Source: Euglena gracilis
Taxonomy: Eukaryota
Assembly (NCBI GenBank): GCA_039621445.1
Contig: CP154954.1
Coordinates: 18,010,589 to 18,074,588 of the forward strand
Direction: 5' to 3'
Length of the DNA: 64,000 bases
In this document: positions 29,251-62,105 of the stretch, one piece after another
How the letters are laid out: every line of letters begins with the position of its first letter
Numbering within the stretch: the stretch's first letter is position 1
Translations under genes and position numbers: made by a program
The notes under the pieces: model-generated
Told to the model about the DNA's origin: nothing
What the model saw: the letters and a program-made list of their open reading frames with translations, nothing else
Database searches by the model: none

Positions 29251-29348
29251 GACTGAACAGGGAAGTGAAATGACTTTTGGTGACACCCATGTCGGTTTCC
29301 AGTCCATGGTGGCCCCTATTAATCAAAATTTGAAAGCATGGGACAGGA

Positions 29349-40487: not shown

Positions 40488-40555
40488 CCCTCCCACCGGG
40501 ACCCCAGCGGTGCCCAGCCTCCCCGTGGCGGGAGGGGGTCAACGTGCTAAGGCGC
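40488..40555 (+). ncRNA. Candidate HDV-like ribozyme
   Basis: P1 CCCTCCC/GGGAGGG, P3 GCC/GGC, L3 TCCCCGT, P1.1 GG, J4/2 GCTAA, P2 GTGCC/GGCGC; P4 minimal. Confidence 0.5.
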
Positions 40556-41107: not shown

Positions 41108-41195
41108 CATCTGCACCGGGACCCCAGCGGGTGTCCAGCCTCACCGACTTTCGGGCGAGAGGTGGCAACATGCCCTAAGCATGGCTAACCGGGCA
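41108..41195 (+). ncRNA. Candidate degenerate HDV-like ribozyme
   Basis: Same leader CCGGGACCCCAGCGG..CCAGCCTC; GG-CAA-CATGC-CCTAA-GCATG-GCTAA (P1.1, P4, J4/2); P1 pairing poor. Confidence 0.42.
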
Positions 41196-43439: not shown

Positions 43440-44158
43440 CTGCCCCCCAGCGGGCATGCCCTCATCCATCCATCATACCATCCTGGCCCCTGCCCCCCAG
43501 CGGGCACGCCCTCATCCAGCCATCGTATCATCCCGGCCCCTGCCCCCCAGTGGGCACGCCCTCATCCATCCATCATATCATCCCGGCCACTGCCCCCCAG
43601 CGGGCACGCCCTCATCCATCCAACATATCATCCCGGCCCCGGCCCCGCAGCGGACACGCCCTCATTCATCCATCCCGGCCTCTGCCCCCCAGCGGGCACG
43701 CCCTCATCCAGCCATCATATCATCCCGGCCCCTGCCCCCCAGCGGGCACGCCCTCATCCATCCAACATATCATCCCGGCCCCGGCCCCCAGCGGACACGC
43801 CCTCATTCATCCATCCCGGCTTCTGCCCCCCAGCGGGCACGCCCTCATTCATCCATCATATCATCCCGGCCCCTGCCCCCCAGCGGGCACGCCCTCATCC
43901 ATCCATCATATCATCCCGGCCCCTGCCCCCCCAGCGGGCACGCCTCATCCAGCCATCATATCATCCCGGCCCCTGCCCCCCAGCGGGCACGCCCTCATTC
44001 ATCCATCATATCATCCCGGCCCCTGCCCCCCAGCGGGCACGCCCTCATCCAGCCATCGTATCATCCCGGCCCCTGCCCCCCAGCGGGTACGCCCTCATCC
44101 ATCCATCATAGCACCCCGCCCCCTGCCCCCCAGCGGGCACGCCCTCATCCCTCCATCA
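43440..44158. repeat. ~50-bp minisatellite (about 14-15 units); remnants at 44545-44770
   Basis: Unit CGGGCACGCCCTCATCCATCCATCATATCATCCCGGCCCCTGCCCCCCAG at 43501, 43551, 43601 and onward. Confidence 0.95.
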
Positions 44159-45161
44159 CATTAGATAGCATCATTTTCAGGCATCTCCCCCAGTTGGAGT
44201 TGTCATACAGCGCTTATTTGTACACCGCATCCCGCACCCATCCAATGCATATTTTTTTATCCATTCATTCATTATTTATTTATTTATGTATTTATTTATA
44301 TATTTATTTTTTAATTTATTTATACATTTACTCATTTTGTTTATTCATTCATTCATTTATTTACTTAGTTAGTTATTTATTTCTGTTTTTGTATGTATGT
44401 ATTTATTTATGCATCTATTTGCTTTATTTTCATCTGCATACAAATACTCATTCGCTCATTCATTCATGTTTCATCTGCCCCCCAGGCTGCCAGAAATTAA
44501 GTTTGTGGGCTGTTGTGTCACACTTTATGAACCCCCCCCCCGCAGCATCACGCCCTCATACATCCATCATATCATCCCGGCCCCTGCCCCCCAGCGGGCA
44601 CGCCCTCATCAAAATCATCCCAGCGGGGACGCCCTCATCCCCATCATCCCCCACGGGGCATCATATATGGGCACGCCCTCATCCCATCATCCCGGCCCCT
44701 GCCCCCAGCGGGCACGATCACTATCCCGGCCCGCAGCGGGCACGCCCTCCCCTCCCATCCATCATCGGGCCCGGGGGCTTAGGCCTCAGTTTGTTCGCAT
44801 CCCTCGCACGCACACGGCATATTTTATATTTATTTTCATTTTTTATTTTTTATTATATTTTATTTTTTATATTATTATTTTTTTATATTTGTTTTTTTGT
44901 ATGTGCCCGCAGTATATTTGCAATTCTTCACCCATCACATTCCATGTATCCCATTCCGTGGGCTTGTTATCCCCCTCCACGTCCCTCAGCCCACTCACAT
45001 CAATCTTTTCAAACCCCACAGCCCAGTCTCACCTACTGTCTATATAAATGAAGGTGCCACCTGCACCCCGCCCACCCCCTCTCTCAGAACCAGCGACCCC
45101 CCCCCCGGGCCCTTAACCCCTTTAACATGCCCCCTCTTGGCTGTGCTGCGCTGTCTTCCAT

Positions 45162-45350
45162 CGGTCCACCGCGGCCGTCGACCTGGCGTTGTTCCCTCGG
45201 TCCACTGCCTCCACCCACTCGGTCCACCGCGGCCGTCGACCTGGCGTTGTTCCCTCGGTCCACCGCGGCCGTCGACCTGGCGTTGTTCCCTCGGTCCACC
45301 GCGGCCGTCGACCTGGCGTTGTTCCCCCGGTCCACCGCGGCCGTCGACCT
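45162..45350. repeat. 36-bp tandem repeat with palindromic core
   Basis: CGGTCCACCGCGGCCGTCGACCTGGCGTTGTTCCCT, about 4.5 copies plus a partial. Confidence 0.93.
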
Positions 45351-46135
45351 CTTAATTTTCGCCACAGATTTCACCGGTTTTTTTTTTTGCAGTCCATTTC
45401 AGTCATTCACACTGACTCACCAGTCGGCATCTCAAGTCCTCTTTTCGCAGCGAACCCCCAAATTTTCTGAGGATACCCACCTGTGGTAGACAGAAATAAA
45501 GCGGGGAAGCAAATTTCCCTCACATCTCCTATCCTGCACCACCACCCACCCCCATTTTTCTTGGACGTCGACACCCATTTCCTTTCCCCTTCCCCCTCCC
45601 AGATCGTAGTGATACACAACTCCTCTCCGGCTTGTTGCATTTGTGCTGATTGTCCTTTCCCTCCTGACCCGACATCATCAGGCCATCGTTTTTTTCATTT
45701 TTGCACGCACCATCCAATTCGTTGTTTTTTTTGTTCAGGCTGCTAAAGTGCAACCACCTATCTGCCACCGCCCTCTAAACACTATCTTAATTTTCGCCCA
45801 CAGATTTCACCGGATTTTTTTTTGCAGCTCATTTCAGTCATATCACACTGACTCACCAGTCGGCAGCTCAAGTCCTCTTCGCAGCGAACCCCCAAATTTC
45901 TGAGGATAACCCCACTGTGGTAGAAACAGAAATAAAGGCTGGGGAAGCAAATTTCCATCAACATCTCCTGCACCACCAGCCCACCCCCCATTTGCTTGGC
46001 ACTCGACCCATTTCCCCCTCCAGATCGTAGTGATACACAACTCTCTCCGGCTTGTTGAATTTGTGCTGCTTTCCCTCATGCCCCGACATCAGTGTTTCTT
46101 CTACTCCAACCATCCAATTCGTGGTTTTGTCTGCC
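45350..46135. repeat. Diverged direct duplication (~435-bp period)
   Basis: TCTTAATTTTCGCC(C)ACAGATTTCACCGG ... CAGATCGTAGTGATACACAACTC ... CATCCAATTCGT occurs twice. Confidence 0.85.
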
Positions 46136-47219
46136 GCCTCACGCAATTTTGGACCCTCCCCCATCTGGAAAACTCACCCCCCCCCGTGGTTTTCTGCACA
46201 CCAACTGCCTGGACCTCCTCAACTTTCTGGATTACCACAAGCTAATTTCCCATAGCTGTAAAATTTACCCCCCCCAACCCCCATGGTGTTCTACTTTCCA
46301 TAAACCTGACCTCCCGTTGTTGTTCTACCCCCTGAACTACAGATAACACCCTCGCCCAGATGGTCTCCTATCCACCGGGCCCGGCCCGCCGCGGTGGAGG
46401 CGCTGCAGGCCTCCCCATGCTCCATCGGTTTCAATATAACCCCAGCCACTTTGTGGAGTCCAACTCGTCAAAATGCCGGATAACCCCAGCCAACCCATTA
46501 CTCTACCTACTGAATTTCTGGCAAACCCAACCCCCAGTGGTCTTCGACACATATCACTTCCAGAAATCCAATGTACCAAATTTCCGCATAACCAGAACCC
46601 CCCATGGTGTTTCTCACGACCCATTACCAGCACTTTACCATACGAATTTCCGGACAATCCTATCATTATGGTGCACTATGCACCAACCTGGACCTCCCCA
46701 CCCCACGTGGTGTACTGGTGTACTGTACCGGACCATCCCAACCTTCACATGGTGTCCTACCCACCAACTTTCTGGATGCCACCGTCTCTCTGAATGCCAC
46801 CACCACCCCGTGGTGTTTTTTACCCTGTAAATTTCCGGGTGACCACACGCCAACACATAAGATGCCCTTGATTGCCCTTGTGAGGTACCACCTTTCCACC
46901 TCCCGAGTAAACATACCTACCGAGCTTTCGCCCCCAAGCACCTCGTGCCCTCCGGTTTCTGACTTGTTGGCTTAACCCCCCAAGGAAGATAACCCTTTTA
47001 TTTCCAGGCCTTCCTCAACCTCCCTGTGATGTTTCTTCCCAGCGAATCTCGAAACAACCCCAACGGCCCTGTGGTGTCCAACCCACCGAACTTCCGGATA
47101 ACCCCGCACAAGCCATGGTGTTCTACTCACCTAACATCTGTAAAATTTCCCCCCCCCCCCCCATGGTGTGGTGCATGCTGACTACCCAGCCACCCCCCCA
47201 CCACACACCACACCACCAG

Positions 47220-47600
47220 GTCACCAGCCAGACCGTACAGCTGCCCCCTCCCCTGGCACTGCGTGGCTGTGCGGCTCATGGCCGGCCGGGCCCGGCCGCC
47301 GCGGTGGAGGCGCTGCAGACCACGGTGGGCACGGTGGGCACGCTGCGGTCCGCGGCCTCCGAACCCGGCGCGGAGGGGCCCCTCACGCTGCGCCTCAACG
47401 CCACCGCCGCGGAGGCGGAGCCCCCCGGCCCCGACGCGGCCCTCGCCCTGGGGGATTACCTGGACGCCGCCTGGTCACCCCTCTGCTCATCCCAAAAGCC
47501 GTTGTGGAGCTGAACCACGGCGAGGACGCCCCGGACGGCCCGCCGTCAGAGGCTGCCCAGGCCCTCTCGGTCAGGCGACCCTGGATGACCCTGGATGAAT
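47220..47600 (+). pseudogene. GC-rich coding-like fragment(s) of unknown product
   Basis: Exon-like GC3-rich codons after a CAG (VTSQTVQLPP..LTLRLNATA..LGDYLDAAW). Partial copy at ~46375-46410. No family recognised. Confidence 0.3.
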
Positions 47601-50600
47601 TTTTGTGTGCGTGCGGATAATTGCTTGGAGTTCTGAGATTTTGGCCCAACGTTTTGGCCAACGTTTTTGGCAACAGGAGAATACCTCCCCCCGAACAACT
47701 CCCTGTCCAATTCTTTGGTTTATGTCCCCAATTGTTGTGATGCTTTTTCAAGTAACACACAGAACACATAAGATTGCCCTTGTGACTGACTGATTCTGAT
47801 GACACACCCAAAATTAATACCCCCCTTGACTCCGATTGTCCATTCTGACTTGTTGGCTTAACCCCCCAAGGAAGATCTTTCTTTTTCACCACGCACCGGG
47901 CCAACTCCCTCCCTACTCTTCATTACCCCACAGAGCGCAAAGACTCGCACCCTCAAAACCCCTCACGTGAGCCACAAGGCATACCACTGAAAGCTCATCA
48001 CGCCAAACATGTGATTATGTGTGGCATGCCCCCCGAGGAAATCACCAAATCAACCCCCATTAACGGCCCACACCCCCAACTACTGGATTTTTGAGGTGAG
48101 CATTTCCTAGAGCCCCACGCGACACCACACACACGCAATTGACTCTCTCCTTTTTGATGTGCCATCCCGTGCCCCCCCCACTCAAGTCTCAATTCTGTGG
48201 GGTGTTTTTGGCTCATGGCCAGTCGGCGGCGCCAATGCATGCTCCAATGCCCTGGCCCAGCCCCAACCCCAGTCAAGGCCCTGTTGTCTGGCAGATCCAG
48301 GGCTGCAGAGGGGATTGCACGCGCAGCCACCCTCCTCAGCTGATTTAAGGCCCCATCACCAACTCGTTAACACCCCCCTGGTCACCCCTCTGCTCATCCC
48401 AAAATTCAGAAAGCGACATTTTCGGCATGATCATTCGCCTACGCACACAACCCTCCCCCCATCGTCCATATTTTTCTCATCCTCCCCTGTGTTTCTTTCC
48501 TCTGCCCATCTCTGGGTGCACTCTGATGTCCCCCTCCCCAATCAAGCATTTCCCCAGGTTGGGCACCAGACCGGCCAGGTCAAGCGCATGGCCGCCGCTG
48601 AATGGTGGCCAGGCCTGGCCCCATAAACGGACCCTGGCTGCACAAGCGCCATGTTTTCTATGCATACCCGCATGGCCTTAAATTTCTGTCTTTTCCTTGG
48701 CATTTCTGTTCCTTTTTGTTTTCTTTTTTTCTTTTTTCTTTTTTTTTTGCAGGCTCCTAGAACCTTGGGTCCTGGGATTCTATGTTCTATCCCACGACCC
48801 ATCTTTACAGACAGCTGCAGCTCTGATGACCCCCCCTCCGCATCTCACAAATCACTCACAACAACAAATCCCTCATCCCCGACCCAGAACGTGTCCCAAA
48901 ATCCCCCCCCAGCCTAGACCCACCACATTTTGAGGCGCACATTCTTCGAGCTGCCCAGAGATTTCCCTGGGTGAACCCCCTCCCCGCACGCGGTGCCACG
49001 CTCACAATTGATTCTGTCTCTTTCCATGTGTCATCCCACTCCCTCCTCCCCTGTCCAATTTTGACCCTGTGGGGTGGCTTTGGCCATGCTGGCTGGCAGC
49101 GCTGGTGTATGCTTCAATGTCCTGGCCTGGCCCCAACCATGGATTCTGTGAAAACAGGGCTGCACGTGTGCCTGTTTTGCTTATTTATTTTCAGTGCATC
49201 CCCTATTAACCCCGCCGTAGCACCAGGGCCCAGAGGGGTAGCATGCGCATCCACCCCCCCCCAGCCGTCTCAAGACCCCACCGTCAACTCACTAGCACCC
49301 CCAGTCACCCTCCGCCCATATCAGCATTCAGAGAGTGCCATTTTCAGGCGTGACCCGGTGATGTCACACAACGCCCCCTCTTACTTGAACACTGCACCAT
49401 GCGCTTGCGTGCATCCCCCCACCCCTCCGCCGGCCTGGCACATGGTCCATCGCTGGGCCGGGGTCGGGCTTGGACCAGTACTGTGCACGTGTCCCTTGCC
49501 AGCCTGTGGGAGGCATGTGCCCGACCGGGCCCGCCTGGGCAGGTGCCCAAATCGGCCTTGAAGGGGACGTCAGATGGCACTGTGAGGTGGGCAGTAGCGA
49601 TGGAGGGGGTAGATGTCAGACATATGGATGGTACAAGCCCGACCTTTCTTCTGATTGCACCATGGCCCTGACTTTTTTTTGCCCTTTTATTTTATTGTAT
49701 TTTTTTTGCTTTATATTCTTCTTCTCCTTCTCCCTTTTTTTTGCAGGTTGCCAGAAGCCAGGTTCAAGTAATTTTGTATTGCACCACATGATCCCCCCCT
49801 CCCCAGTCTGCATCACTCACGACAACCGAACCCCCCCTCTGGCCTTTTGGATGCTTTTCAAATCGCACAACCACAACCAGGTCTAACACTATTAGGAGGT
49901 GCAAAATGTTTCAGGAAAGACCAGACCATGCATCACCGAGCCTGTGCCCCCCCCCCCAGGGCCCTTGGCCCGCCAACGCACCTCCTCCTGTATTGGGGTG
50001 CTGCATTGTCTTCCCGGCCCACCTCTCGGCCCTTGCGGCCGTCTTCAACTCGTTGTTCTCTCAGTCCCTGCGGCCATCGTCCAATCGATGTTCTCTCGGT
50101 TCCTGCTGCCGTCATCTACTCGATGTTCTCTCGGTCCCTGCGGCCTGTCATCATCGGCAAGGTCACCAGATGTTTTGTGGCGGTTGTCCAGTGAGGCTGT
50201 CAGGCAGGCATTTTCTTGTCACCATTTCTTCCCATGTGACCACCCCCAACACCCACCCCTGATCAGGGCGGTAGGCTGACCACCCGCTCCCCCTCCTCCT
50301 GCCACCCACCCCCCCCGTGCGCATTACAATTGCCTTGTCTCTCCACCATACCCCCATGCTGAAGGTGTCTGTTGGGGAGCGCAATGCAGCGCTGGCCCTT
50401 ATCCGAGCCTGTCTCCCGACGCCGCAGTTCAGCACCCATGAAGGTGAACATGAAGGGTCGTCAGACCCCACCAATAGGACAACGAAATTTAGCTGGCCTT
50501 GGGAGGGATCCAAGCCTTCCATAGACTGGTAACATCCTCCGGGCAGGGCGGCCAGCGGTCCCCATTGAAAGCCCGGCGTAAGATATATGGGTCTCAGGTG

Positions 50601-51556
50601 TCGGTTCGGCGCAGGGCGTCCGCGGCTGCCTGCCAGGAGTACAGCTCGCATGGCCGTTGGAGCTAGTCGCCAGATCCCCACATGACTGCTGGCCTCCTCT
50701 AGTCGAGTGCCCCCCGCCGAATATTATCCACAAAACCTGCCCTGCTGCACACCCGGCAAAATGTGCCTCCATGGTACCAGTGCACAGCCATCAGCTGTGG
50801 ACAGGTACCAGGAACCTGCTTAGAATCTACACCACTTTTCCAAACCCCCCCTCTCCTTGCTGCCCGTCTGCCACAGCGCAGGCATGCACTCGCCGCACCT
50901 ACACCCACGGCAGTGATCTGGGTAAGCTGGCTGGGGGTTGTGTTGGGGAATTACTATTCCCTAGTGCCCCCTATGTGAAGGCCACCTTCTGCAACCTCGT
51001 CATGTGATGGTGGAAAGACCTCCACCAACCACCCCGCCCCCGGGCCTTGCAACCCAGCCCGAGCCCGCCGGCCAGCTGCATGCTCCCCAGCCGCGGCTAC
51101 TCGCCGCATCACCGCCCCCTTGTCGGTCAGCCGCCTGCCCTCCCAGGACTCCACCCCCCCCCCCCCCTCCAGCAGCAGGTCGGCCCCCAAGCCCAGCCCC
51201 CAGGCCGCAACGCAGCCGCCACCAACTCCTGCCGCACAATGCCCGCCGACCCACCTGCGCAGCTTGTAGCCATTCCCCCACCCTCCGCCGCTCAGGCAAC
51301 CATTCTTGGTGATGAACTCAGCGCCGCTGTCCGACTTGGGAGAGCACTACCTATGGACCTCGTCGCCATGGGGTTCGTGGATTTTCAGTGCTGCCTGGAC
51401 AGCTGGGATTGCTGTGGACATTCCAGCCCCCCTCCCCTAGCCCGTCTTACATACCACCCATCCCGCCAGTGTATAGTTATTCCCCCAATGGCATATGCTG
51501 GGTCAGCGGCAGGGAGCCTCAAACCCCCCGCTTTTGTCCTTAAGCAAAGTGCCTCC

Positions 51557-52807
51557 TCACCGCAGGAGAACGAAGAAGAACGTTTCCTTTTCCTCCATTT
51601 CCTCCTCTTTCCTCTGACCCAGCCGGTGTTGGACGGGGGTTCTCGTACTCCCTCGAGGCAGACCGAGAAGGGAGGAAGGGACACCGAGGGCGAAGCACAA
51701 AGACATTGTGAGGCCATGCCTCGCTCGCCGGCGGTTTGTTGTGATTGTTTTGGTGAGCTGGGTTAGGAGGTCCCGCTTAGTGCCGCCTCGCCGGAGTTGG
51801 CTGCATTGTCTCCGACGTGGCGACCATGGCGCTGTTTCTTTGCTTGGGGGGGTCCCCCCCACCTCCCCCCCCCCCTGGCCCCCATCTTCTGATCGAGGGC
51901 GTTTGAAGACAAATTTTCTTATATGGGTGGGGGGGTCGGGCTCACAATGTCTTTGTGCTTCGCCCTCGGTGTCCCTTCCTCCCTTCTCGGTCTGCCTCGA
52001 GGGAGTACGAAACACCTCGGGCTCCGCACTTTGCCATTGTGAGGCCAGATTGTGCACTGAAAAAAGCGGGGCCAGGGCATCCTCCAAAGAACCTTGGGCA
52101 CCAAGTCTTTGATAATGGGCTGTGAAAGCCTCCACCCCCTTCCATTGACCAATTTCACAAACTTCTTGGTCAGAAAGGCCCAATTTTTTTAGCAACCCAA
52201 TCCCTGCCCCTCTGGTGGAGTGGGGTCCCCAAACCTGGGGGGGTACCCCCTGTTTGGTCAAAAAGTCTTTGGTGATAGAAGCAATGGTATCTGCCTTAAT
52301 GGCTTTGTAGGGGGGTTTTAACGTAATTAAAAGGGGGCCCCCAGGTTTCATAAAGAAACGTGTTGCTGCCACATAAGACAACATTAAATGAAAGGGGCTG
52401 ATTTGGGGGCATTGGGGAATGGAGACAACTCGCTCCCACTTGTGGAGTTTTTGACCTTTACGGTTAATTTTGATGTAGGGTGCCCCCCCCAACACACTGG
52501 TGGTTCTTTGGACCTGTGCCAAATCAGAACTTCTGTATAAACAGAGGATTCGTGAACAGAAAATGAGTTGTGTACGCAATGTACATATATCAGAGGGCAG
52601 GGGGGACTGTGCCAGCCCCAGGAGGATTGGGAGGGGATCCCAGAATGCACCATATTTCTCCAGGTTTTGGTTCCAAAGCCTTTTGTAAGGTGCCAACATG
52701 GCATGGAACCTCAGGCCCCCAAAGCCAGGGATCAATAGCATAGCACTGTATGCATTGCGTGCTTGGGCCTTTGAAAATTGGAACAGTTGAATTAAAGCGT
52801 CAACCAC
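51557..52807 (-). CDS. E4 tyrosine recombinase (catalytic part)
   Basis: YRSSDL, HSTRG, GQW, AHY. The ORF reads on through the ICR/ITR. Confidence 0.9.
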   Translation of the reverse strand: MVDALIQLFQFSKAQARNAYSAMLLIPGFGGLRFHAMLAPYKRLWNQNLEKYGAFWDPLPILLGLAQSPLPSDICTLRTQLIFCSRILCLYRSSDLAQVQRTTSVLGGAPYIKINRKGQKLHKWERVVSIPQCPQISPFHLMLSYVAATRFFMKPGGPLLITLKPPYKAIKADTIASITKDFLTKQGVPPQVWGPHSTRGAGIGLLKKLGLSDQEVCEIGQWKGVEAFTAHYQRLGAQGSLEDALAPLFSVHNLASQWQSAEPEVFRTPSRQTEKGGRDTEGEAQRHCEPDPPTHIRKFVFKRPRSEDGGQGGGEVGGTPPSKETAPWSPRRRQCSQLRRGGTKRDLLTQLTKTITTNRRRARHGLTMSLCFALGVPSSLLGLPRGSTRTPVQHRLGQRKEEEMEEKETFFFVLLR

Positions 52808-55800
52808 TTGGTCAGTGGTGGCTTCAGGGGGGGGGTACCCCCATTTTTTCCAGAATCACCCATAAAAGCGTAAAGGCACTTTGGTACCTTTTCAAACTGG
52901 GGTTTCTTCCCAGGAAATCTGTAATGGTTGAATTTTGTATTTGTTTCCCCTCCAAAATTTGCCTGAGCAAATCATGCAAAGGAGGGGCCACCTGGGGGGT
53001 GGCATTTTTTCCCCCCTGCAATTGGTGAACATACCCATGTAGGGGGTGATTTTCAGGCAGGGGGTCCCTGGAACTTTCATTTTTATTAACTGGGGCCACC
53101 ATGTGGCTGAATCCCAGTAGGGGGTGACCATCAAAACTTTGGCCTGTGGAAACATTTTTAATCTGGGGAGAAATTTTTGGATTACAGACCAGGGGGGGTT
53201 TGCATAAAGATCCCCCATGTTGTCCAGTGGACATTGTAATGCATCCACTGCTGTGGCTCCCCAGTGGGGCCACCTGGCCACAAATTGTGGCAGTTTTTTG
53301 TTGCCTGGTGAGGCAAAAAGGTCTGTTTTTAGGCTGATGTAATTTTTGAACTGCTGTCTCAGCCACTGAAAAAGTTGGGACTCCAGTGAGTAATCCCCCC
53401 TGTCCATTTCCCACCTGCTTATGGGGTCTGCCAGGCAGTCTTTGGAGGGGACCCACTTTACTTGCAGGTTTATGTTGTGTTCCATGCACCATTTGAAGAA
53501 GGGTCTTAGCATGGAATTGAAAGGGTCCTTTCTGCCCCCCCCCCCTTTTGTTAAGTAATAGTAAATTACTTGATTGTCCACGGATAGGGACACAGTTTCC
53601 CCTGGCTGGCTGAGGCTTTGTACTGTGCTTATTGCTGCACTTAATTCTTTGACATTTATGTGCAAAATGGAGTTTTCCCTCCAAAATTCTTGCACAATTT
53701 TGCCTGTTCGAATGTCCAGCCCCCCCCAGGCATGGGTACTGCTGTCTGAGTGCAACTCCCTGGTTGCATTTTGGGGGAAGGGTCTGCCCCCCAGGTGTCC
53801 AGCAGAATTTTTATTTCCTTTAATTGGTCCTTTATTCTTTGGGAAATGGGATGTTTTGAGTCCCAGGGGGCTGTGGAATTTTCCACCAAAAAATTTGCCA
53901 GGGCATCCGTAAAGGCCCTTAGAAAGGGCAGGGTCATTAGATTGCATCTGATTTGGCCCAAAATGGCAGCCAGTTGCCTTTTTGACATGTAATCTTTTTC
54001 CACCGTTTTTCCCAGCTCCTTTTTTACTGTTTTTATTTTCTGGGGGGGCACCTGTAATTTTCCCTCTTGGAAGTTTAGCTGAAAGCCAAGATGATTGACG
54101 ATTTGGGTGGGCTGCAGGGTGGACTTTTTCACATTGATTTTGAATCCTGATTTGATTAAATCCCTGACCACTGTGTTCAGGTGATTTTGTAAGATGAGTT
54201 GTGTTGGGGCCACCAGTAAAATGTCGTCCAGGTAAATAAATACCTGGATGCCTCTTTTCCTCCACAGTTTTTCGAATGTCTTCATTACTGACATGAAAAT
54301 TTGGGGCATTACATTCAGGCCAAAACAGCCTGCCTGGAATTCCCAGGTCTGCCCCCCCACCTGATGCCTTAAAAATGGCCTTAGGCCTGGACTTACTGGA
54401 ATATGAAAATAGGCATCCTTCAGGTCTATTTTTGCTGCCCAGTGGCCTTTTTCCAAAACTGGAAAAATGTGCTGGATGTGATCCAGCTTGAAAGGTTTCA
54501 CTTGGAACCTTTGATTTATTTCCCTGCAATCGCTTATTAATCTCCATTTTGTCTGCCCCCCCTCTGGTTTTGAAATCAGAAACCAGGGGATCAGGTGCTG
54601 GGTGGTTGAATCCCTCACCCTCTTTATGGATCCAGATTTTCCAGTAGTATTTCAGATCCAGATCCAGCAGTATTTTTTCTGCTTGGGGTAAGTTCAAATT
54701 TGCCGTGATTTTTGGGTGGGTGGATATTTTTGGTGGGCTGACCCAGGGGGGTTGAATGCCATCCCTGATGAGTTGACATGTTGTTGGGGGGGCATTTTTT
54801 GCCCACCATTTCAAGCTTTTTTGCAGCCTTTGATGGAGGGGGGTGTCTCCCCATTTTTCTTCCATGGAATTTATTTCCTGGATAAGATGATTTTGGGGGG
54901 GCTGGGCTGGAGATGTTGGACATTTTAGGCTTTTTTGCAACCTTTGATGGAGGGGGGTGTCTCCCCATATTTCCTCCATTGAATTTATTTTCTGGGTAAG
55001 ATGATTCTGGTGGGGCTGGGCTGGGGGTGTTGGACATTGCACCCCTAGGTCCCCTAGGGCTTGGGCCCTTGTAAAAGGAAATTTTTTCTGGGGGGATGTG
55101 CATGCACTCTCTCCCTCTCTGCTCACCTCTCTGGATGATCTTGTTGTTGGAAGACATACCATAGGGCTTAATGCCCCTGTTTGGCCTATCTGGTCTTCTC
55201 CATGTTGATGTGGTTGGTTGACATACCATAGGGGGGCCTCTGTGGGTCCCCCCCTTGATTGATTGATCGGGAATTGAGAAATAAATGTTGGAGGGGTTTC
55301 TGCCTCTCCCTCCAAAAGGGCCACTGTGGGTCCCTTTTCCTCCTGGGGCTGGGTCATTGAAAGGGCCACTGTGGGTCCCTTTATCCCCCATTGTTGGCAG
55401 AGGGCCACTGTGGGTCCCTCGGGGGATTTCTCCAGCAGCATCCTTAGCTTCTTGGTGGCCACTGTGGGTCCACCCTGCTGGTTCCTTAGCTTCTTGGTGG
55501 CCACTGTGGGTCCACCCTGCTGGTCTCCAAGGTTTCCATGTATAAATTTTTTTCCATAATCCATCTTGTAGGTCTTCCAGGCCTTGATTTCTTTCTTGGC
55601 CTCCAACCCCATTGGAAATCTGGGGGGGCTGCTGTGGCCCCCCCTTGTCCCCTTGAGAGGGGCTGTTGTGATAGATGAATTGGGGGGGTTGGACAGACCT
55701 TTTCTGCCCCTTCCTGAGGGGATTTGCTTGTGAAACTGGCCCCCATGGCCCCTGTGGTGTTGACCTCCTTGGCCTTGATTCCATCTCCCCATCTTCTGGC

Positions 55801-56426
55801 CAATTGGTGCCCAGGTTGCTGGGCGCCTTTGGGGGAGATGCCCCTGATGTGTGGGCTTTGATTGTCCAATTGTGTAGCATTTTGGGCCCCCATGGCCCAG
55901 TCTTTGCCCACGAAGGGCTGGGGCTGGCTTCTGTCTTCTGGGCCTTCTGGCCACAGTGGTCCAAGGACCGTGGCCGTCACTGGGGGGGGTTTTGGGCTGT
56001 GAAATTTCTGGGGTGGGGGGCTGGGTGGGAAGAACAGCCACGGTTTGCCACGTGTTGACCGCATCTCCAAGGTCTCCTTCTGCTGCGGCCACTCCTCCAG
56101 GACGTCCGTGGCCATATAATTCCAATTTCTTCTCCACTGCATTGCTCATCGAAGTCGAATTTGACAATTGAATTCTCAATTGATGTTCGTCTGGTTCGTG
56201 TTCTTCTGGATATTTAATTGATATTGACTTCTCTTCCCAGTTCTTCCTCGTTTGTGAACTCTGTTCCTGTCTTCTGGGTGTCGAAGGGCAAGTTAAGAAT
56301 CAGCCAACTCCGGCGAAAAAAGGCACTAAGCGGGACCTCCTAACCCAGCGCACCAAAACAATCACAACAAACCGCCGGCGAGCGAGGCATGGCCTCACAA
56401 TGGCAAAGTGCGAAGCCCGAGGTGTC
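51643..56426 (-). mobile_element. DIRS1-like element E4 (family A), full-length, close relative of E3
   Basis: Termini GACACCTCGGG (56426) and GGGAGTACGA (51643); ICR ~51941-52046; RT, RH, MT, YR. Confidence 0.95.
52892..54618 (-). pseudogene. E4 RT (53656..54618) and RNase H/MT (52892..~53790), one frameshift in a G-run
   Basis: FIYLDD; HSDSS, HINVKEL, LADPISR; DLFAS, YANPPW. Confidence 0.92.
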
Positions 56427-56561
56427 CACTCCCGCCCCCACCGCCCCACCCGCGGACTAGTCTCCTGACCATTCGGGCTCCGCACTGCGAGATGGTGAGG
56501 TCCTGCTTTCCTTGCCGGCTGTTCTGTTCTGGTGTGTTTGTGCGTGCGCGGGGGGTGCTTC

Positions 56562-57323
56562 TTACTGCGCCTTTGTTGCCGGAGTTGGCGATGATGAGGC
56601 CTCCTCCGACACCTTGGCGAAGCTGAACCGCCGTGGCCCCGCCCCCCCCCTCTCCCATGGTCGCTTGGTGGGGGGCCCCCCCCCTGATGGGGATGGTGGT
56701 CTCTTTCTGTGTTTCTGGGTGGGTGGTTGGGGCTGCTTGGTCGGGGGTCCCCTTTCTGGTTGGGATGTCTTTCGTTTTCTGCTGATTTTTTGGGTGGGAG
56801 GGTTGGGCTCACCATCTTCTTGTGCTTCGCCCTCTTGGTCCCTTCCTCCCCCTTCCTCTGTCGTGGGAGTCCGAGACCATTCGGGCTCCGCACTGCGAGA
56901 TGGTGAGGTACTGTGCACCCCCCTTTGGGCCATAATATTTTGAATTTTTGATACGACCCCAAGTCGCAAATAATGGGCTTGGAAGGCCCCAAAATTTTTC
57001 CACTGACCCAGCTGCTGGACTTCTTCCACTTGCAAACCAGCATTTTTCCACCATAAGACCCCAGCCCCTCTGGTGCTGTGGGGTTTCCAATGGGTGGTGT
57101 CCACCCCCCCCTCTTGCAGAATTTCTTTGGTAAGGGAATTCACCCTTTCTGATGTCAAAGGTCTTTTACCATCCAAAGACCATAACAAATTATTTTTGTG
57201 TCCAACCATGTGGGCTGTCCTTTCCACATATTCTTTCAATAAATGCCAGGGGCTGATGAGGGGGGTGTGTGGCAAATTCAAAATCTCCTCCCATCTTGGG
57301 AATTGCCACCCTTTCCTTTGCAA
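56562..57323 (-). CDS. E5 tyrosine recombinase C-terminal half
   Basis: ISPWHLL, HSTRG, GQW, AHY. Joined to the previous ORF by one frameshift in the homopolymer at ~57331-57341. Confidence 0.88.
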   Translation of the reverse strand: MQRKGWQFPRWEEILNLPHTPLISPWHLLKEYVERTAHMVGHKNNLLWSLDGKRPLTSERVNSLTKEILQEGGVDTTHWKPHSTRGAGVLWWKNAGLQVEEVQQLGQWKNFGAFQAHYLRLGVVSKIQNIMAQRGVHSTSPSRSAEPEWSRTPTTEEGGGRDQEGEAQEDGEPNPPTQKISRKRKTSQPERGPPTKQPQPPTQKHRKRPPSPSGGGPPTKRPWERGGAGPRRFSFAKVSEEASSSPTPATKAQ

Positions 57324-60300
57324 TAAAATGAAAATTTTTTTCTCCCACGAAACTGATTTTTCGCTGGGTTCTGGCTAAATCAACCCCCCTGTGGAGGGCT
57401 AACAGCCTCCAACAGATGATGAGTCTGTTTCTGAGCTCTTTCACAGACAGGTCTGAGAGGGGTTTGGATTTCCTGATGATGTTTTCTAAGAAATCAGTGG
57501 GGTCCCAGAAATGGGCATACTTGCAGACATTGGAATTCCACTTCCTTTTCAATGGAGACAAAAGAGGGGAAAACCTCAATGACCCAAACCCTGGGAGTAA
57601 TAAAACTGCTGCATATGCATTTCGTGCAGTGTTGAGGCTGTGGGCAGCCAAATCAAGGATGGCCTCGGCCATCTTGTGGACTGTGCAGTCCTGCAGGGGC
57701 ACCCCTTTGTGCAACAATTGGCCCACCAATGTCCTGAAGGCTGAATCATATCTTTTGACATTTCCCAGATTTTTTATGTAAGTGTCGATACTGGACATCG
57801 AAACTTCCTGGGATTGTAATATTTGCCTGACACAATCAAGCAGGCCAATTTCCACCTTGGGGGGGGCATCTCCTCCCCCCAGCAGTTGGTGAATAGACCC
57901 CATTGGGGGGGTACCAACAAAACTTTGCTGCCTGGCTTTCTGATTGCCATTAATTGGCGCCACCATGATGTTGAAGCCCAGTGGGGTACGATCAACAGAC
58001 AAGTCAGGTCTGGGTTTACCATTAATCTCTGAACCCATTGGGGAATGATGCTCCAGGGGGGGTTTGCATAAACTGGGGGGAGGCCCCTCAAATCTGCCTT
58101 CAAGGCATCCACCAGCAAAGCCCCTTGGTGGGGGTATCGACAAACAAACTTGGGGAATTTTTTGTTGCTGGGTGTGCAAAACATGTCCACCTCTGGGGTG
58201 ATGTCCTGTCTGAAAAATTTCAGGATTTGGTGAAAGATATGTAGGTTTAGGGTATAATCCCCTGGGTCCTTTTGCTCCCTGGTCAGGGAGTCTGCCAATT
58301 GCTCTTTTGTGGGAACCCAAACCACCTGCAAATTGATTTGCTTTTCTTGGCAATGATACAGCAGGGGTTTTAAAATGGAATTTAGGTAGGGCTTTTTGCC
58401 TCCCCATTTTGTTAGATAACTTACAGCCACTTGGCTGTCCACATGAAGCATTATGGTTTGTTTTGGTTTTGCCAGACTTTTTACTGTCTCCACTGCTGAC
58501 ATCAATTCTTTTTGGTTGATGTGAAGGATGTGCAGGTCCCTCCAAAAATCCTGCACTTTTTGGCCTGAGTTTTTGTCCAGCCCCCCCCACTGCCAGGTGC
58601 TGCTGTCTGAAAACAGATCCTGAGAGGCCTGGGATTGAAAGGCTCTGCCCACACCTGGCTGCAAAAACGCTTTTAACTCCACAATTTGATCTTTGACCCC
58701 CTTTGGAATGGTTAGGGTGTGGTCCCAACCCCACTTTGTGTGCAAATCCACCATTTTGCAAAGTTGATCTGTCAGAATTCTGAGAAATGGCATGGAGACT
58801 AAATAGCTTCTGACTTGCCCCACAATAGAGCTGAGTTTTCTGCAGCTCATTTTTTGTGCTGTGAGCACTTTTCCCAGCTCCTTTCTTAAGGATTTTAATT
58901 TTTCCTGTGGGATTTCCAGCTGGCCCTTTTTCAAATTGACCCACTGGCCCAAATGTTTTATTTCCTGTGTGGGTTCCAGACAGGATTTGGGGAGGTTTAA
59001 TCTGAAACCTGCCAATAAAAGGTCCTGCTTTATTTCTGCCAAATGTTGGGCTGCAGTCTTTTTGCTGGGGGCTAACAGCAAAATGTCGTCTAGGTAGATG
59101 AAAACTACCTTTCCCTCCTTTCTCCACTTCCTTTCCCAGACTCTCATGAGAGTCATAAATTTTTGTGGCAGGCTGCTTATACCAAAACATGCAGCTTGAA
59201 ACTGCCAAGTTTCCCCCCCCACTTGCATGCAGACATGTTTTTCCAGGCTGCTGTGCAGTTTTAGGTGAAAATAAGCATCTTTCAGATCTATTTTTCCACA
59301 GAACCATCCTTTTCTTAGGTATGGGAAAATGTTTCCCATGTGTTCCAGCCTGAACTTCTGGGGGGTGAAATAGTGATTTAACTGTCGACAATCTGAAATC
59401 AGTCTTTCCTTGGTCTTTTCCCCTTCTTTTTTGGAAATTATGAAGTAAGGGACAAAATGTTTTGCCTCCTCTGGGGGGATTTGCCTGGTTGCCCCTGCAC
59501 ATTCGTATTCTCTCAGAATTTTTTGGGCAGTCATTACTTCCTGGGGAGTTTTGAAGGGAACTTTTAAGGACATTTGAGGGGGGAGGGGAAGATCTGCCAT
59601 AACTCCCTCCCTTATCAGGTTTAATACCTCTCTGCTGGCTCCTGCCTTGACCCAATGGGGGATGCTGGTCTGCAGGGCTTTGTAAGGGGGTACCCCTGGG
59701 TGTAATGTGTCTGGGGACTCCACAGGCCCCATCACTGGGGTCCTTCCCCTTGGTTGCCCCATCACTGGGGTCACCCCTGGTTGCCCCATCACTGGGGCTG
59801 TAGCTGGCCCTGCCATAGGGCTTTCCAAAGACAGGCTTTCCCCCTGTTTGTGAATGATGGGGGAAGGTCTGTGCCTGAAATGAGGGGGTATATACAAGGC
59901 TGGGCTGATTATCTTCTGGGGGGGGCCTGTCTGAGCCAATCTTGGGCCTCCCCCCCAAGGGCTGATGTGGTGATTGCCTTGGCCACCATTTGCCTTCTGG
60001 CCTCCCCTGGCACTCAGGCCTGCTTGGCCACCATTTGCCTTCTGGCCTCCCTTGGCTCTCAGGCTTGCTTGGCCTCCATTGGCCTTTTCTCTGGGACTGT
60101 CTCTTCTCTGTCCCTCTTGATTTCCCATAAAGGCCACCATGGCCTGTTCTTGGCATTGGCTTGCCACTCCTGGGGGGTTTGTGTCTGAAATTGCTGGGGG
60201 GAAAGTTGGACACACCTTTCCCCAATGGGCTCTTTCCAGGTTGGGGTACTGGCTGCCATAGCCTGTCCCCTGGGCCCACTGCCCTCTTGAGTAATGGCTT

Positions 60301-60822
60301 CCATAGCCTTGAATTTGGACCCCAGGTCCTTTTTGTTGATGGCTGCCATAGCCATGATAATTTGAATCCTTTGGATTTGTTGAAAGGCTGCCATAGCCTT
60401 TGTCTTGACCCCTGGAAGGGGGTGGACATAGAAAAGGGGGGGGAGTCTGTTGGACCTGTGATGGTATTCCCCTTCTGTCTTCTCTTCCTGACCACAGTTG
60501 TCCATGGTCCATGGCCATTCTCATGTTGAGAGGGGGATTTGAAAATCTCAGAAGCCTTGGGGGGTGGGGGGGTTGCGATGGCCACGGACTGGCTAGTTGC
60601 TGCCGCCCCTCCAGCTTCTGCAGCTGCTGCTGTGACTCCACCTTCCCCAGCTTCAGCTGACTTCTTGAAAGTTCTTTGCAGTTCTTCTTGAGATTCAGAG
60701 TTTCTTTGAAATTCATTCTTCATGGAAATCCAGTTGTCGATATCTGTTGTGTTTCTTGTTCTTCTTTCTTGAATTTCTTCCAGTTCCAGTTGAATTCTTC
60801 CTGCAGGAAGTTGAAGTTCCAC
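57190..60822 (-). CDS. E5 overlapping ORF leading into the tyrosine recombinase N-terminal half
   Basis: 1210 aa open in a second frame over the whole pol ORF; ends with LLALHRGVDLAR. Confidence 0.8.
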   Translation of the reverse strand: MELQLPAGRIQLELEEIQERRTRNTTDIDNWISMKNEFQRNSESQEELQRTFKKSAEAGEGGVTAAAAEAGGAAATSQSVAIATPPPPKASEIFKSPSQHENGHGPWTTVVRKRRQKGNTITGPTDSPPFSMSTPFQGSRQRLWQPFNKSKGFKLSWLWQPSTKRTWGPNSRLWKPLLKRAVGPGDRLWQPVPQPGKSPLGKGVSNFPPSNFRHKPPRSGKPMPRTGHGGLYGKSRGTEKRQSQRKGQWRPSKPESQGRPEGKWWPSRPECQGRPEGKWWPRQSPHQPLGGRPKIGSDRPPPEDNQPSLVYTPSFQAQTFPHHSQTGGKPVFGKPYGRASYSPSDGATRGDPSDGATKGKDPSDGACGVPRHITPRGTPLQSPADQHPPLGQGRSQQRGIKPDKGGSYGRSSPPPSNVLKSSLQNSPGSNDCPKNSERIRMCRGNQANPPRGGKTFCPLLHNFQKRRGKDQGKTDFRLSTVKSLFHPPEVQAGTHGKHFPIPKKRMVLWKNRSERCLFSPKTAQQPGKTCLHASGGGNLAVSSCMFWYKQPATKIYDSHESLGKEVEKGGKGSFHLPRRHFAVSPQQKDCSPTFGRNKAGPFIGRFQIKPPQILSGTHTGNKTFGPVGQFEKGPAGNPTGKIKILKKGAGKSAHSTKNELQKTQLYCGASQKLFSLHAISQNSDRSTLQNGGFAHKVGLGPHPNHSKGGQRSNCGVKSVFAARCGQSLSIPGLSGSVFRQQHLAVGGAGQKLRPKSAGFLEGPAHPSHQPKRIDVSSGDSKKSGKTKTNHNASCGQPSGCKLSNKMGRQKALPKFHFKTPAVSLPRKANQFAGGLGSHKRAIGRLPDQGAKGPRGLYPKPTYLSPNPEIFQTGHHPRGGHVLHTQQQKIPQVCLSIPPPRGFAGGCLEGRFEGPPPSLCKPPLEHHSPMGSEINGKPRPDLSVDRTPLGFNIMVAPINGNQKARQQSFVGTPPMGSIHQLLGGGDAPPKVEIGLLDCVRQILQSQEVSMSSIDTYIKNLGNVKRYDSAFRTLVGQLLHKGVPLQDCTVHKMAEAILDLAAHSLNTARNAYAAVLLLPGFGSLRFSPLLSPLKRKWNSNVCKYAHFWDPTDFLENIIRKSKPLSDLSVKELRNRLIICWRLLALHRGVDLARTQRKISFVGEKNFHFIAKERVAIPKMGGDFEFATHPPHQPLAFIERICGKDSPHGWTQK
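57774..60716 (-). CDS. E5 polyprotein: gag-like/low-complexity N-terminus, RT, RNase H, N6-adenine methyltransferase-like domain
   Basis: Uninterrupted 980 aa; IDLKDAYFH, FIYLDD, FSDSS, HINQKEL, VDSQ, LADSLTR, DMFCT, YANPPW. Confidence 0.95.
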   Translation of the reverse strand: MNFKETLNLKKNCKELSRSQLKLGKVESQQQLQKLEGRQQLASPWPSQPPHPPRLLRFSNPPLNMRMAMDHGQLWSGREDRRGIPSQVQQTPPPFLCPPPSRGQDKGYGSLSTNPKDSNYHGYGSHQQKGPGVQIQGYGSHYSRGQWAQGTGYGSQYPNLERAHWGKVCPTFPPAISDTNPPGVASQCQEQAMVAFMGNQEGQRRDSPREKANGGQASLRAKGGQKANGGQAGLSARGGQKANGGQGNHHISPWGGGPRLAQTGPPQKIISPALYIPPHFRHRPSPIIHKQGESLSLESPMAGPATAPVMGQPGVTPVMGQPRGRTPVMGPVESPDTLHPGVPPYKALQTSIPHWVKAGASREVLNLIREGVMADLPLPPQMSLKVPFKTPQEVMTAQKILREYECAGATRQIPPEEAKHFVPYFIISKKEGEKTKERLISDCRQLNHYFTPQKFRLEHMGNIFPYLRKGWFCGKIDLKDAYFHLKLHSSLEKHVCMQVGGETWQFQAACFGISSLPQKFMTLMRVWERKWRKEGKVVFIYLDDILLLAPSKKTAAQHLAEIKQDLLLAGFRLNLPKSCLEPTQEIKHLGQWVNLKKGQLEIPQEKLKSLRKELGKVLTAQKMSCRKLSSIVGQVRSYLVSMPFLRILTDQLCKMVDLHTKWGWDHTLTIPKGVKDQIVELKAFLQPGVGRAFQSQASQDLFSDSSTWQWGGLDKNSGQKVQDFWRDLHILHINQKELMSAVETVKSLAKPKQTIMLHVDSQVAVSYLTKWGGKKPYLNSILKPLLYHCQEKQINLQVVWVPTKEQLADSLTREQKDPGDYTLNLHIFHQILKFFRQDITPEVDMFCTPSNKKFPKFVCRYPHQGALLVDALKADLRGLPPVYANPPWSIIPQWVQRLMVNPDLTCLLIVPHWASTSWWRQLMAIRKPGSKVLLVPPQWGLFTNCWGEEMPPPRWKLACLIVSGKYYNPRKFRCPVSTLT

Positions 60823-61299
60823 AGAAAGTTCGGTCCACCAGTTGGTAAGAGTATTGGTTCTCGGGAAGGTAGAACTCCTCGAAAAACAATTCCACTTGAA
60901 CTCGTGGTAGTAAAACTCTTTCTCCTTGAGGTCGAAGGGCAGAAATAGGAATCAGCCAACTCCGGCAACAAAAAGCAGTAAGAAGCACCCCCCGCGCACG
61001 CATGGTGGTCTCTTTCTGTGTTTCTGGGTGGGTGGTTGGGGCTGCTTGGTCGGGGGTCCCCTTTCTGGTTGGGATGTCTTTCGTTTTCTGCTGATTTTTT
61101 GGGTGGGAGGGTTGGGCTCACCATCTTCTTGTGCTTCGCCCTCTTGGTCCCTTCCTCCCCCTTCCTCTGTCGTGGGAGTCCGAGTACCACGCTCCTGGAG
61201 CATCATCCGGGCCCCGGGTAGGCCCCTTGGAGGCAGGGCCATCGTGGCCCTGTCGGCCTTGGGCATTGCATGACGTGGGGCACTTCTAATCCTAATCCC

Positions 61300-62105
61300 A
61301 ATCCCACACACCCCCCCACACACCCCCCCACACCCCCCCACACACCCCCCCACACACCCCCCACACTCATGTTGACTGTGCGCAATTGTTCGGGTGTCAT
61401 TTTTTTGACTTACTCGGCCTTCGGCCTCGTCGCGCCGCGGCCTTCGGCCGTGGCCCGGGGGGGGGGGGCCGCCCCCCAGACCCCCCCAGAACCAAAATAA
61501 CATCATCCCCTTGTGTGTGCAAGGCAAGGGAAAGAAAATCCACTTTCCTCAGATTTGGCACCCCCTCACGCCCCCCCACACCCCCTCCACACCCCCCCAC
61601 ACCCCCCACCCCCCCCCCCCCATCCCCCCCACACCCCCCCACACACCCCCCCCACACTCCCCCACCCCCCCCCCCACACACCCCCCACACCCCCCCCACA
61701 CTCATGTTGACTGTGCGCAATTGTTCGGGTGTCATTTTTTGACTTACTCGGCCTTCGCCCTCGGCGCCCCGCGGCCTTCGCCCGCGCCCCGGGGGGGGGG
61801 GGGCGCCCCCCGGACCCCCCCCCAGAACCAAAATAACATCATCCCCTTGTGCGTGCAAGGCAAGGGAAGAAAATCCACTTTCCTCAGATTTGGCACCCCC
61901 TCACACCCCCCCCCCCCCCCCCCCCCACACAACCCACCCCCCCCACACCGCCCCACCCCCCCCCCACACCACTCCCCCACCCCCCCCCCCACACCCCCCC
62001 ACACTACCCCCCCCACATACCCCCCCCACACCCCCCCCCCACACTACCCCCCCCACACATACCCCCCCACACACCCCCCCCACACACCCCCCCCACAGTA
62101 CCCCA
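61300..62105. repeat. Tandem duplication (~335-bp period) with C-rich low-complexity tracts
   Basis: CACACTCATGTTGACTGTGCGCAATTGTTCGGGTGTC...CAGATTTGGCACCCCCTCAC occurs twice. Confidence 0.88.

Follow-up and report, generated by a model that had tools for sequence, protein, structure and literature searches.

Two end designs, each implying its own way of restoring the ends during replication, are used to tell superfamilies apart among retrotransposons of the DIRS order: inverted terminal repeats (ITRs) accompanied by an internal complementary region (ICR), and split direct repeats. A locus in Euglena gracilis raises the question of how a single element can display both. The locus lies in a stretch of 64,000 nucleotides (nt) of contig CP154954.1 (assembly GCA_039621445.1, positions 18,010,589 to 18,074,588 of the forward strand), hereafter the window, to which all coordinates refer. 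Self-comparison, open reading frame (ORF) listing, Pfam profiles, tblastn with the proteins of the focal element and a motif map show that nested tyrosine-recombinase retrotransposons of the DIRS order dominate this window, and one of them, E5 (56467-61183, minus strand), combines split direct repeats with inverted repeats inside its ends. Repeated switches between the two end designs have been inferred previously, with intermediate forms reported as "not observed" (Szitenberg et al. 2014, PMC4157794), and the legend to Figure S2 of that article states that Dirs1-like elements are not derivable from other types in one step. In this work we analyze the structure of E5 and argue that it is probably a flipped isomer of a DIRS1-like (ITR/ICR) tyrosine-recombinase retrotransposon, a young copy whose body is inverted between the two ITR cores.

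The repeats of E5 were delineated by repeat search, script comparison and blastn within the window. A first direct repeat pairs 61002-61184 (A1) with 56693-56875 (A2) at 183 of 183 nt (E 2e-93), and a second pairs 56467-56505 (B2) with 56875-56913 (B1) at 38 of 39 nt (E 1.8e-14). Inside the ends, inverted ITR cores of about 48 nt (56541-56589 and 60955-61002) agree at 46 of 49 positions, including perfect runs of 28 and 18 nt (E 6e-16). In coding orientation (minus strand) the element thus reads A1 (183 nt), ITR core (48 nt), gag, pol and tyrosine recombinase (YR) genes, B1 (39 nt) joined to A2 (183 nt), a spacer of 103 nt, the second core (48 nt), 35 nt and B2 (39 nt). A chance origin of these repeats is not tenable, and the layout proposed for E5 in a first-pass annotation of this DNA, A1-ORFs-B1A2-B2 with inverted repeats of about 50 bp retained inside the ends, is present in all its parts where that annotation had placed them.

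Read along the plus strand, E5 opens with the 3′ terminal repeat B2 (56467-56505, minus strand in coding terms), which comprises the left extension l (56467-56491) and the tip motif ATGGTGAG (56492-56499). The ITR middle that follows (56506-56540, 35 nt, minus) is without a counterpart at the opposite end of the element, and aligns with the ITRs of the neighbouring elements that we designate family A, as well as with 20209-20236 and 39744-39790. The first arm of the ITR core (56541-56589) contains GCCGGAGTTGGC, a sequence common to all family A ITRs, and is the inverted repeat of the second arm (60955-61002). Between the arms lies the inverted body (56590-60954, minus, 4365 nt), which carries the 5′ untranslated region (5′UTR), gag, pol, YR, the ICR block and the spacer. 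The spacer between A2 and the core (56590-56692, minus, 103 nt) is unique in the window, matching only itself. The ICR block consists of A2 as its right half (56693-56875, minus), made up of the post-ICR segment P1 (56693-56807, 115 nt), a tip motif (56808-56815) and the right-extension segment r′ (56816-56875), and of B1 as its left half (56875-56913, minus; l′ and tip), which bears the motif AGTGCGGAGCCCGA on the minus strand at 56881-56894. Beyond the second core arm, the 5′ terminal repeat A1 (61002-61184, minus) reads on the plus strand as the reverse complement of P1, the tip motif CTCACCAT (61117-61124) and the right extension r, which ends in ...TCCGA at 61183; the motif map places motifs rC, rB and rA at 61129-61183 on the minus strand. 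Tip motifs occupy four sites per element in E5 as in its neighbours E3 and E4.

The joint between B1 and A2 forms a dyad (56866-56889) that reads on the plus strand GGAGTCCGA-GACCAT-TCGGGCTCC, with 9-nt arms complementary at 8 of 9 positions around a 6-nt spacer. Read directly from the sequence, this junction core is a near-palindrome, GGAGCCCGA-N6-TCGGACTCC (8/9), in which the spacer edge coincides with the repeat boundary. The N6-spaced dyad recurs in family A ICRs with arms matching at 7 of 9 positions (39047-39071 in E3), and its shape makes it a candidate core site for the tyrosine recombinase.

Set against published definitions, this anatomy has features of both designs. Split direct repeats are defined by A1 at the 5′ end and B1, A2 and B2 at the 3′ end (PMC6681497; PMC4157794), an order that E5 shows with its A copies identical at 183 of 183 nt and its B copies at 38 of 39. 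The refined scheme for DIRS1-like elements (Piednoel et al. 2011, PMC3266345) recognizes lTer, lICR, rICR and rTer, with extensions, and a short motif that the two ITRs have in common with the two ICRs. E5 possesses the inverted terminal repeats that this design calls for, since its cores (46/49) are homologous to the ITRs of family A, but it lacks a complementary internal region as found: the block at 56693-56913 is a direct copy of both ends, and turns complementary to the termini only after 56590-60954 is reversed.

The reference for that reversal is provided by family A itself. The motif map gives the layout of E3 (34665-39432, plus strand), which sits within the ICR of E2 and serves as a complete canonical DIRS1-like reference, and of E4 (51643-56426, minus), a complete canonical copy 92% identical to E3 and located 40 nt from E5, as l, ITR, ORFs, ICR (l′r′), post-ICR, ITR′ and r. 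In this family l is 25 nt long (GACACC...), the ITR of about 125 nt starts with the tip motif ATTGTGAG, r spans about 62 nt and ends in ...GTACGA, and the ICR carries the same tip motif on both flanks. E2 (30446-34664 and 39433-39743, plus) is likewise complete and canonical, in two pieces interrupted by E3, whereas E0 (20283 to about 24330, minus) is canonical for the 3′ half that it retains. Wherever they are scorable, all four family A neighbours show the canonical layout, E3 and E4 over their full length, E2 across its two pieces and E0 in the 3′ half. This sustains the earlier description of these elements, with the qualification that E0 is scorable for its 3′ half only. In E3, an older copy, comparison by eye of the ICR with the termini gives 25 of 25 nt for l and 60 of 62 for r.

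Each terminal module of E5 has a homologue in this layout. The internal block of E5 aligns over 120 nt with the ICR and post-ICR of E3 (score 100, z 29 against 200 shuffles), so that the homology to the neighbours' ICR noted previously stands. The 3′ end of E5 in coding orientation aligns over about 125 nt, including extension l and hence the whole of B2, with the reverse complement of the left end of E3 (score 77, z 22). The 5′ end begins with an r′ homologue, matching the ICR and post-ICR of E3 in direct orientation (score 74, z 24, the match that A2 shares) and the reverse complement of the E3 right end (score 54, z 18).

A further homology concerns what lies inside the second core. On the gag side of that core (60955), a segment of 45 nt (60910-60954) bears the strongly conserved 5′UTR-side sequence GTCGAAGGGCA...ATCA, which adjoins the l-bearing ITR in E2, E3 and E4 but the r-bearing ITR in E5. 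Pairwise scores on this side are 30-35 among E2-E4 and 16-22 between E5 and E2-E4, against 1-8 for mixed pairs; taken individually, the E5 segment scores 16-22 against the 5′UTR sides of the left ITRs of E2, E3 and E4 and 1-4 against their spacer sides.

A single inversion reconciles these observations. On the plus strand the left terminus of E5 is ordinary (l, tip, ITR and core, 56467-56589), and its right terminus is of the ordinary type as well (core, divergent part, tip and r, 60955-61183), each homologous, base by base, to its counterpart in the four canonical neighbours. In silico reversal of 56590-60954, carried out by script and followed on the motif map, arranges and orients the motifs as in E3 and E4, without loss or gain of a module. 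After reversal the 5′ positions are alike in E5, E3 and E4 (l at 7, tip at 26, arm at 112-114, UTR5 at 138-139; in E5 itself l< at 7, tip> at 26, arm> at 112 and UTR5> at 138), the 3′ series of E5 reads, in motif-map notation, tip<, l>, rA>, rB>, rC>, tip>, arm<, tip<, rC<, rB<, rA<, and the long ORFs fall on the plus strand. Because the ICR moves with the inverted body, it comes to lie parallel to the E5 termini instead of complementary to them, and the split direct repeats arise as a by-product of one ITR-ITR inversion. The first-pass annotation had invoked an inversion of the circular-junction segment between the two ITRs; this is the same operation as inversion of the body, and one step indeed gives the E5 layout. 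Its description of the result as PAT-like is not supported, given that the cis modules of E5 are all DIRS1-like by nucleotide homology and the split-direct-repeat pattern is only mimicked. The anatomy of E5, the homology of its modules to those of its neighbours and its equivalence to a canonical element by one inversion are observations; that E5 is a flipped young copy of a DIRS1-like element is the reading of them that we consider likely.

The same observations leave little room for E5 being an ordinary PAT-like element in which the inverted repeats are incidental, a reading we regard as extremely improbable. Its A1, B1-A2, B2 order does fit the published definition of split direct repeats, and PAT-like elements (Pat1, Toc, Kangaroo) and Ngaro/VIPER elements share with E5 both this order and near-identity of the repeat copies. 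Against this, the inverted cores match at 46 of 49 positions (E 6e-16) and are homologous to family A ITRs, every module of the termini has a DIRS1-like homologue in the neighbours, and 187 nt, including one ITR core, separate A2 from B2. E5 differs from PAT-like and Ngaro elements precisely in retaining 48-nt inverted cores inside its ends, in those 187 nt and in the homology of its modules to those of canonical DIRS1-like elements residing in the same window.

Nor does E5 appear to be a composite of two elements, produced by nested insertion or by recombination between copies in opposite orientation. Nested DIRS-in-DIRS arrangements are frequent in the window (E3 in E2, E2 in the terminus associated with E1, E0 beside a fragment at 20170), and just 40 nt separate E5 from E4, which has the same orientation. 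Yet the modules of E5 form a single set, canonically spaced once un-flipped, with nothing truncated or duplicated, and E4 belongs to a different family (pol 45-48% identical), so we hold this origin to be highly improbable; recombination with a copy of the same family within the ITRs would be indistinguishable from the proposed inversion and equivalent to it.

If E5 is a flipped DIRS1-like copy, homologous recombination between its two inverted ITR cores would have flipped the body, most likely in a double-stranded circular or nascent DNA stage of its own transposition and otherwise in the chromosome. Recombination between inverted repeats generates flip-flop isomers in the yeast 2-micron plasmid and in herpesvirus genomes; E5 offers no evidence of comparable interconversion between isomers, or of flipping by the element's own recombinase. 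A recombinase-mediated exchange between the junction and the ICR core was considered as an alternative route and rejected: on paper it inverts the ORFs and keeps the ICR complementary, which is not the layout of E5. A role for microhomology at the boundary between A1 and the core was likewise dropped, none being seen there. A recombinase binding the dyad arms could integrate either isomer, and the near-palindromic junction core, with its 9-nt arms and 6-nt spacer, would make integration indifferent to the flip. Replication is another matter. The one-strand fold-back on the ICR proposed for DIRS-1 would not be open to a flipped copy, whose ends would have to be regenerated by strand transfer from the internal block, the route suggested for PAT and Ngaro elements.

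Several points weigh against this interpretation. The right terminus of E5 is no mirror of the left: its 115 nt of reverse-complemented P1 take the place of the tip, outer ITR and middle ITR, about 49 nt in all, found on the left. The match between ICR and right terminus extends over 183 nt in E5, including the 115-nt P1 that is homologous to the family A post-ICR, whereas the corresponding match in family A ends after r and tip at about 70 nt; the un-flipped parent would therefore need an unusually long right match, and no such parent has been seen directly. Only one complete flipped copy has been examined, and the time and agent of the inversion are inferred. Finally, the public runs cover the locus as short contigs of about 140-530 nt, so that misassembly is formally possible.

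The last of these points amounts to a reading in its own right, in which misassembly at the 48-nt inverted repeats produced the inversion. The breakpoints do fall on inverted repeats, the family is a highly repeated one and coverage of the locus consists of contigs, not raw reads. The longest perfect run is, however, 28 nt, below any modern read length; the 64 kb of nested repeats contain no N, suggesting long-read data; and each arm retains its own three differences. An artefact is accordingly very unlikely in our judgement.

A more substantial alternative accepts the geometry proposed here and places the inversion in the past. The E5 family (family B) would be an established lineage transposing in the hybrid layout, with the flip inherited, and hence a true intermediate between DIRS1-like and PAT-like elements. 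We rate this as possible, if somewhat unlikely. The identity of A1 and A2 over 183 nt takes in the 115-nt P1, beyond the family A ICR homologue, as if the 5′ end had been copied from the internal block. The same identity is equally expected if a canonical copy was flipped at or after birth: the ICR and termini of canonical DIRS1-like elements are expected to match when the copy is made, and 183 of 183 nt accordingly marks E5 as a young copy. It does not indicate replication of the flipped form.

The position of E5 among its relatives also bears on an inherited flip. A quick IQ-TREE phylogeny of pol was built from 26 rows, comprising six window elements (as tblastn pieces) and 20 of 120 listed database proteins picked across the identity range, with five distant rows, one of them an amphibian DIRS-type protein, as outgroup; the other database proteins are unnamed. 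E5, P0001, E1 and P0002 constitute one set (SH-aLRT 99), as would suit a separate lineage, apart from the set of the four canonical elements E0, E2, E3 and E4 with P0018 (100). As a whole, the E5 pol groups with the family A clade, away from the five-row outgroup, and the clustering of the labelled rows, two against four, is not significant on its own (92-104 of 500 shuffles were as low).

A terminus associated with E1 (pol and YR at 27742-30068, plus, 5′-truncated) bears on the same question. The segments 30395-30445 and 39744-39811 align end to end with the 3′ terminus of E5 and represent one terminus split by E2 with its nested E3; 39744-39811 (plus) is the outer half (ITR′ and l′) of this E5-type terminus and 30395-30445 its inner half. 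The split terminus sits 3′ of the plus-strand pol and YR of E1, as in E5, with l′ on the 3′ side of the ORFs. The conserved 5′UTR-side motif of a canonical left end is absent from it, which speaks for an inherited hybrid layout only to the extent that E5-type adjacency is mildly favoured. The YR of E1 is truncated and no ICR block is left at the terminus, so that direct polarity of an internal block is not scorable there, and 325 nt (30070-30394) of unassignable sequence link the truncated YR to the terminus. These 325 nt give no significant nucleotide match to the 5′UTR/gag or spacer/post-ICR regions of any of the elements (z -1.1 to 2.8), and a 78-codon minus-strand ORF within them bears only a weak likeness to gag N-termini (97 of 1000 shuffles as high; tblastn E 2-4). 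The 45 nt beside the core at the E1 terminus match neither type of side (81-374 of 500 shuffles as high).

A further candidate, the fragment at 20170-20282 (plus; 38 nt of r′ followed by ITR middle and core), is truncated by E0 at 20283. Since the two ITRs are inverted copies of each other, the fragment may represent either the left end of a flipped element or the canonical right end of a minus-strand element, and the insertion of E0 at 20283 removed the inner side that would have decided; its ambiguity detracts from an inherited flip. The claim that these two ends demonstrate the polarity of E5 to be "not a one-off" consequently survives as to the sequences, which are as described, and fails as to the proof, the 20170 fragment being ambiguous and the 39811 end being without an ICR block. 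Searches for additional copies elsewhere returned little: a pol-alignment scan of metagenome contigs found three short loci only (1368-1830 nt, 23-32% identity), of no use for scoring the ends, the scan of viral contigs found no loci, and the exact ICR-core pattern had 0 matches in genome contigs and 0 in viral contigs.

Public sequencing runs provide a further view of the family. Sampled words of E5 are found at 77-86% in 14 DNA runs of one organism from 11 studies, and at 26% in a leaf-litter metatranscriptome. Four of the 24 listed runs were examined, all as Logan short contigs. The family is very abundant, with 101,904 contig pieces in run X1, 21,598 of them at least 99% alike; abundance on this scale counts in favour of an established, transposing hybrid lineage. 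The RNA library X17 contains 222 pieces, 39 of them at least 99% alike, which indicates presence and is not proof of transcription. No contig piece spanning an E5 terminus was found among the short contigs of the four runs.

Contigs joining distant positions of E5 do, nonetheless, speak to its isomers. In run X14, a joint connects 56540 to 60992 on opposite strands (side of 56 nt, depth 526) and reads ITR middle, core and 5′UTR. At a likeness of at least 90% and with very few contigs, this is a hint of a canonical left end within the E5 family, at odds with a flip inherited by the lineage. A second joint, seen in all four runs and with sides of only 20-34 nt, connects 56500 to about 61117 (or 56808), again on opposite strands, and reads l, tip and P1. 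Neither E5 nor its un-flipped form contains this adjacency, which would be consistent with an inversion between the tip motifs ATGGTGAG and CTCACCAT. Both joints are represented by very few contigs each and hint that several isomers coexist. Other joints, from 56516, 56519 and 56554 to 61115-61129 and from 56510 to 56808, skip sequence and may be deletion derivatives, fitting two places. A record of X1 covering 56497-56633 (record 1, with 8 other letters and 5 gaps; ITR middle, core and spacer side) was entertained as a second flipped copy and rejected, because relatives with symmetric ITRs would yield the same adjacency.

The coding capacity of E5 assigns it to the DIRS order and points to a limit on its mobility. 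The pol ORF (57774-60719, minus, 981 codons open) contains a reverse transcriptase (RT) at about 58941-59426 and a candidate methyltransferase-like (MT-like) region at about 57954-58193. It matches PF00078 with E 5.1e-14 and 52.9 bits (cut-off 29.6), as expected of the RT of a DIRS-order element, is 72% identical to database protein P0001 and shows 36-48% identity to family A pol by tblastn. The MT-like region scores 17.5 bits against PF05869 in E5 and 16.9 in E4, both under the cut-off of 28.1, and several database relatives have a precomputed match to this family. A second open frame (57190-60951, minus, 1253 codons) overlaps pol, its N-terminus corresponding to gag, with the motif GHGPWTTV common to E5, E2, E3 and E4, and its C-terminus to the N-terminal half of YR. 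This frame spans the whole of pol, an ORF overlap that is unusually long even among DIRS elements.

The C-terminal part of YR occupies a further frame (56562-57374, minus) that reads through B1 and A2. Instead of a DDE integrase, E5 carries a tyrosine recombinase, no integrase family having been detected by Pfam in the four ORFs scanned, and its YR frame is itself broken by one base. The YR match to PF00589 (E 2.5e-5, 24.5 bits) lies under the curated cut-off of 27.1; HSTRGAG...AHY is invariant in three of three aligned YRs, and a profile comparison with the catalytic end of Cre (residues 284-323) is weak (E about 0.8) and not significant alone. The break falls at a T7 run (57336-57342; A7 on the coding minus strand), where the frame shifts by one base relative to E4, in which it is continuous, and to E1, as judged from tblastn matches in differing frames and from split ORFs. 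Contigs one letter short at 57335, which would restore the YR frame, account for about 18% of depth (229,830 of 1,242,264 in X1 and 125,065 of 709,347 in X14). The A7-run frameshift may reflect either a dead variant that is common or a site of slippage; with YR split at this run, E5 itself is probably not autonomous for integration, a further difficulty for a lineage that transposes in the hybrid layout.

The surroundings of E5 record a history of insertions among related elements. E3 is inserted exactly within the ICR of E2, between ...GCGAAGCAC and AAAGAC..., without target duplication, and the 311 nt on its 3′ side (39433-39743) are the post-ICR, ITR′ and r of E2 itself. E2, carrying E3, in turn interrupts the ITR of another E5-type terminus just outside the conserved core, and the right end of E0 abuts the core of the 20170 fragment at 20282/20283. 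Together, these nestings indicate DIRS-into-DIRS insertion targeting terminal or ICR sequences. A left-end fragment of family A type (20096-20160; l and the first 40 nt or so of the ITR) lies just before the 20170 fragment. Upstream of E1, a tRNA-Gln (CTG) gene occupies 27558-27629, with the 5′-truncated pol starting about 110 nt downstream of it; no gag was found between 24330 and 27742. Elsewhere in the window, a strong C-rich strand bias extends over about 12 kb (40000-52000, GC skew -0.18 to -0.37) and encloses a 50-nt satellite of 14.9 copies (43432-44158), while beyond E5 a 335-nt tandem unit is accompanied by (CCCCACAC)n-like repeats (61303-62104). A 900-nt inverted repeat at the window start (495-1357 and 1593-2491, 94% identical) has no relation to DIRS elements.

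Compared with known systems, E5 resembles DIRS1-like elements, typified by DIRS-1 of Dictyostelium, in its gag, overlapping pol (RT, RNase H and candidate MT-like) and YR ORFs, in ITRs that combine a conserved core with divergent outer parts, in left and right extensions, in an ICR block located where the YR ORF ends, in a tip motif on the ITRs and ICR flanks (here AT[G/T]GTGAG) and in a preference for insertion into other DIRS copies. It departs from them in that its ICR block is parallel to the termini, its body is inverted between the cores and its right match reaches 183 nt. An MT-like region is common to PAT and DIRS1 elements, and E5 has a candidate one, with a match under the cut-off. 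The closest precedent for an inverted internal segment is the inverted YR region of Kangaroo of Volvox and of a Daphnia PAT element (cited in PMC3266345 and PMC4157794), which illustrates that inversions recur in the evolution of these elements. In those cases the YR gene alone is inverted, whereas in E5 the whole body and the ICR are, with the end points visible as ITR cores. The open literature on DIRS and PAT-like elements, in the available portions of PMC3266345, PMC6681497, PMC4157794, PMC7192593, PMC3783388 and PMC9210276, contains no description of a hybrid or flipped-isomer DIRS form that we could find, Repbase being outside this scope. E5 would then be a concrete case of the intermediate form, its standing as previously undescribed being provisional.

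What E5 means for the evolution of these retrotransposons depends on whether flipped copies move. In E5 a single inversion turns one end design into the other; ITR cores still mark its two break points, and un-flipped relatives lie adjacent. It is tempting, if doubtful on the evidence at hand, to generalize this into a single-step switch between DIRS1-like and split-direct-repeat elements through recombination of the ITRs in the circle, in which a transposition-competent flipped isomer would restore its ends from the internal block, now parallel to them, in the manner suggested for PAT and Ngaro elements, and would serve as an E5-like intermediate through which the PAT-like design arose from a DIRS1-like ancestor, or the other way round, with later loss of the ITR cores. 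Should E5 be a dead-end copy, it would be a curiosity, yet one which warns that repeat polarity alone can misclassify such elements. Should flipped copies be mobile, the evolutionary switch between the two designs would become a one-step event, and the requirement for a complementary ICR, which is essential in DIRS-1 (Malicki et al. 2020, PMC7192593), would become testable in the opposite polarity.

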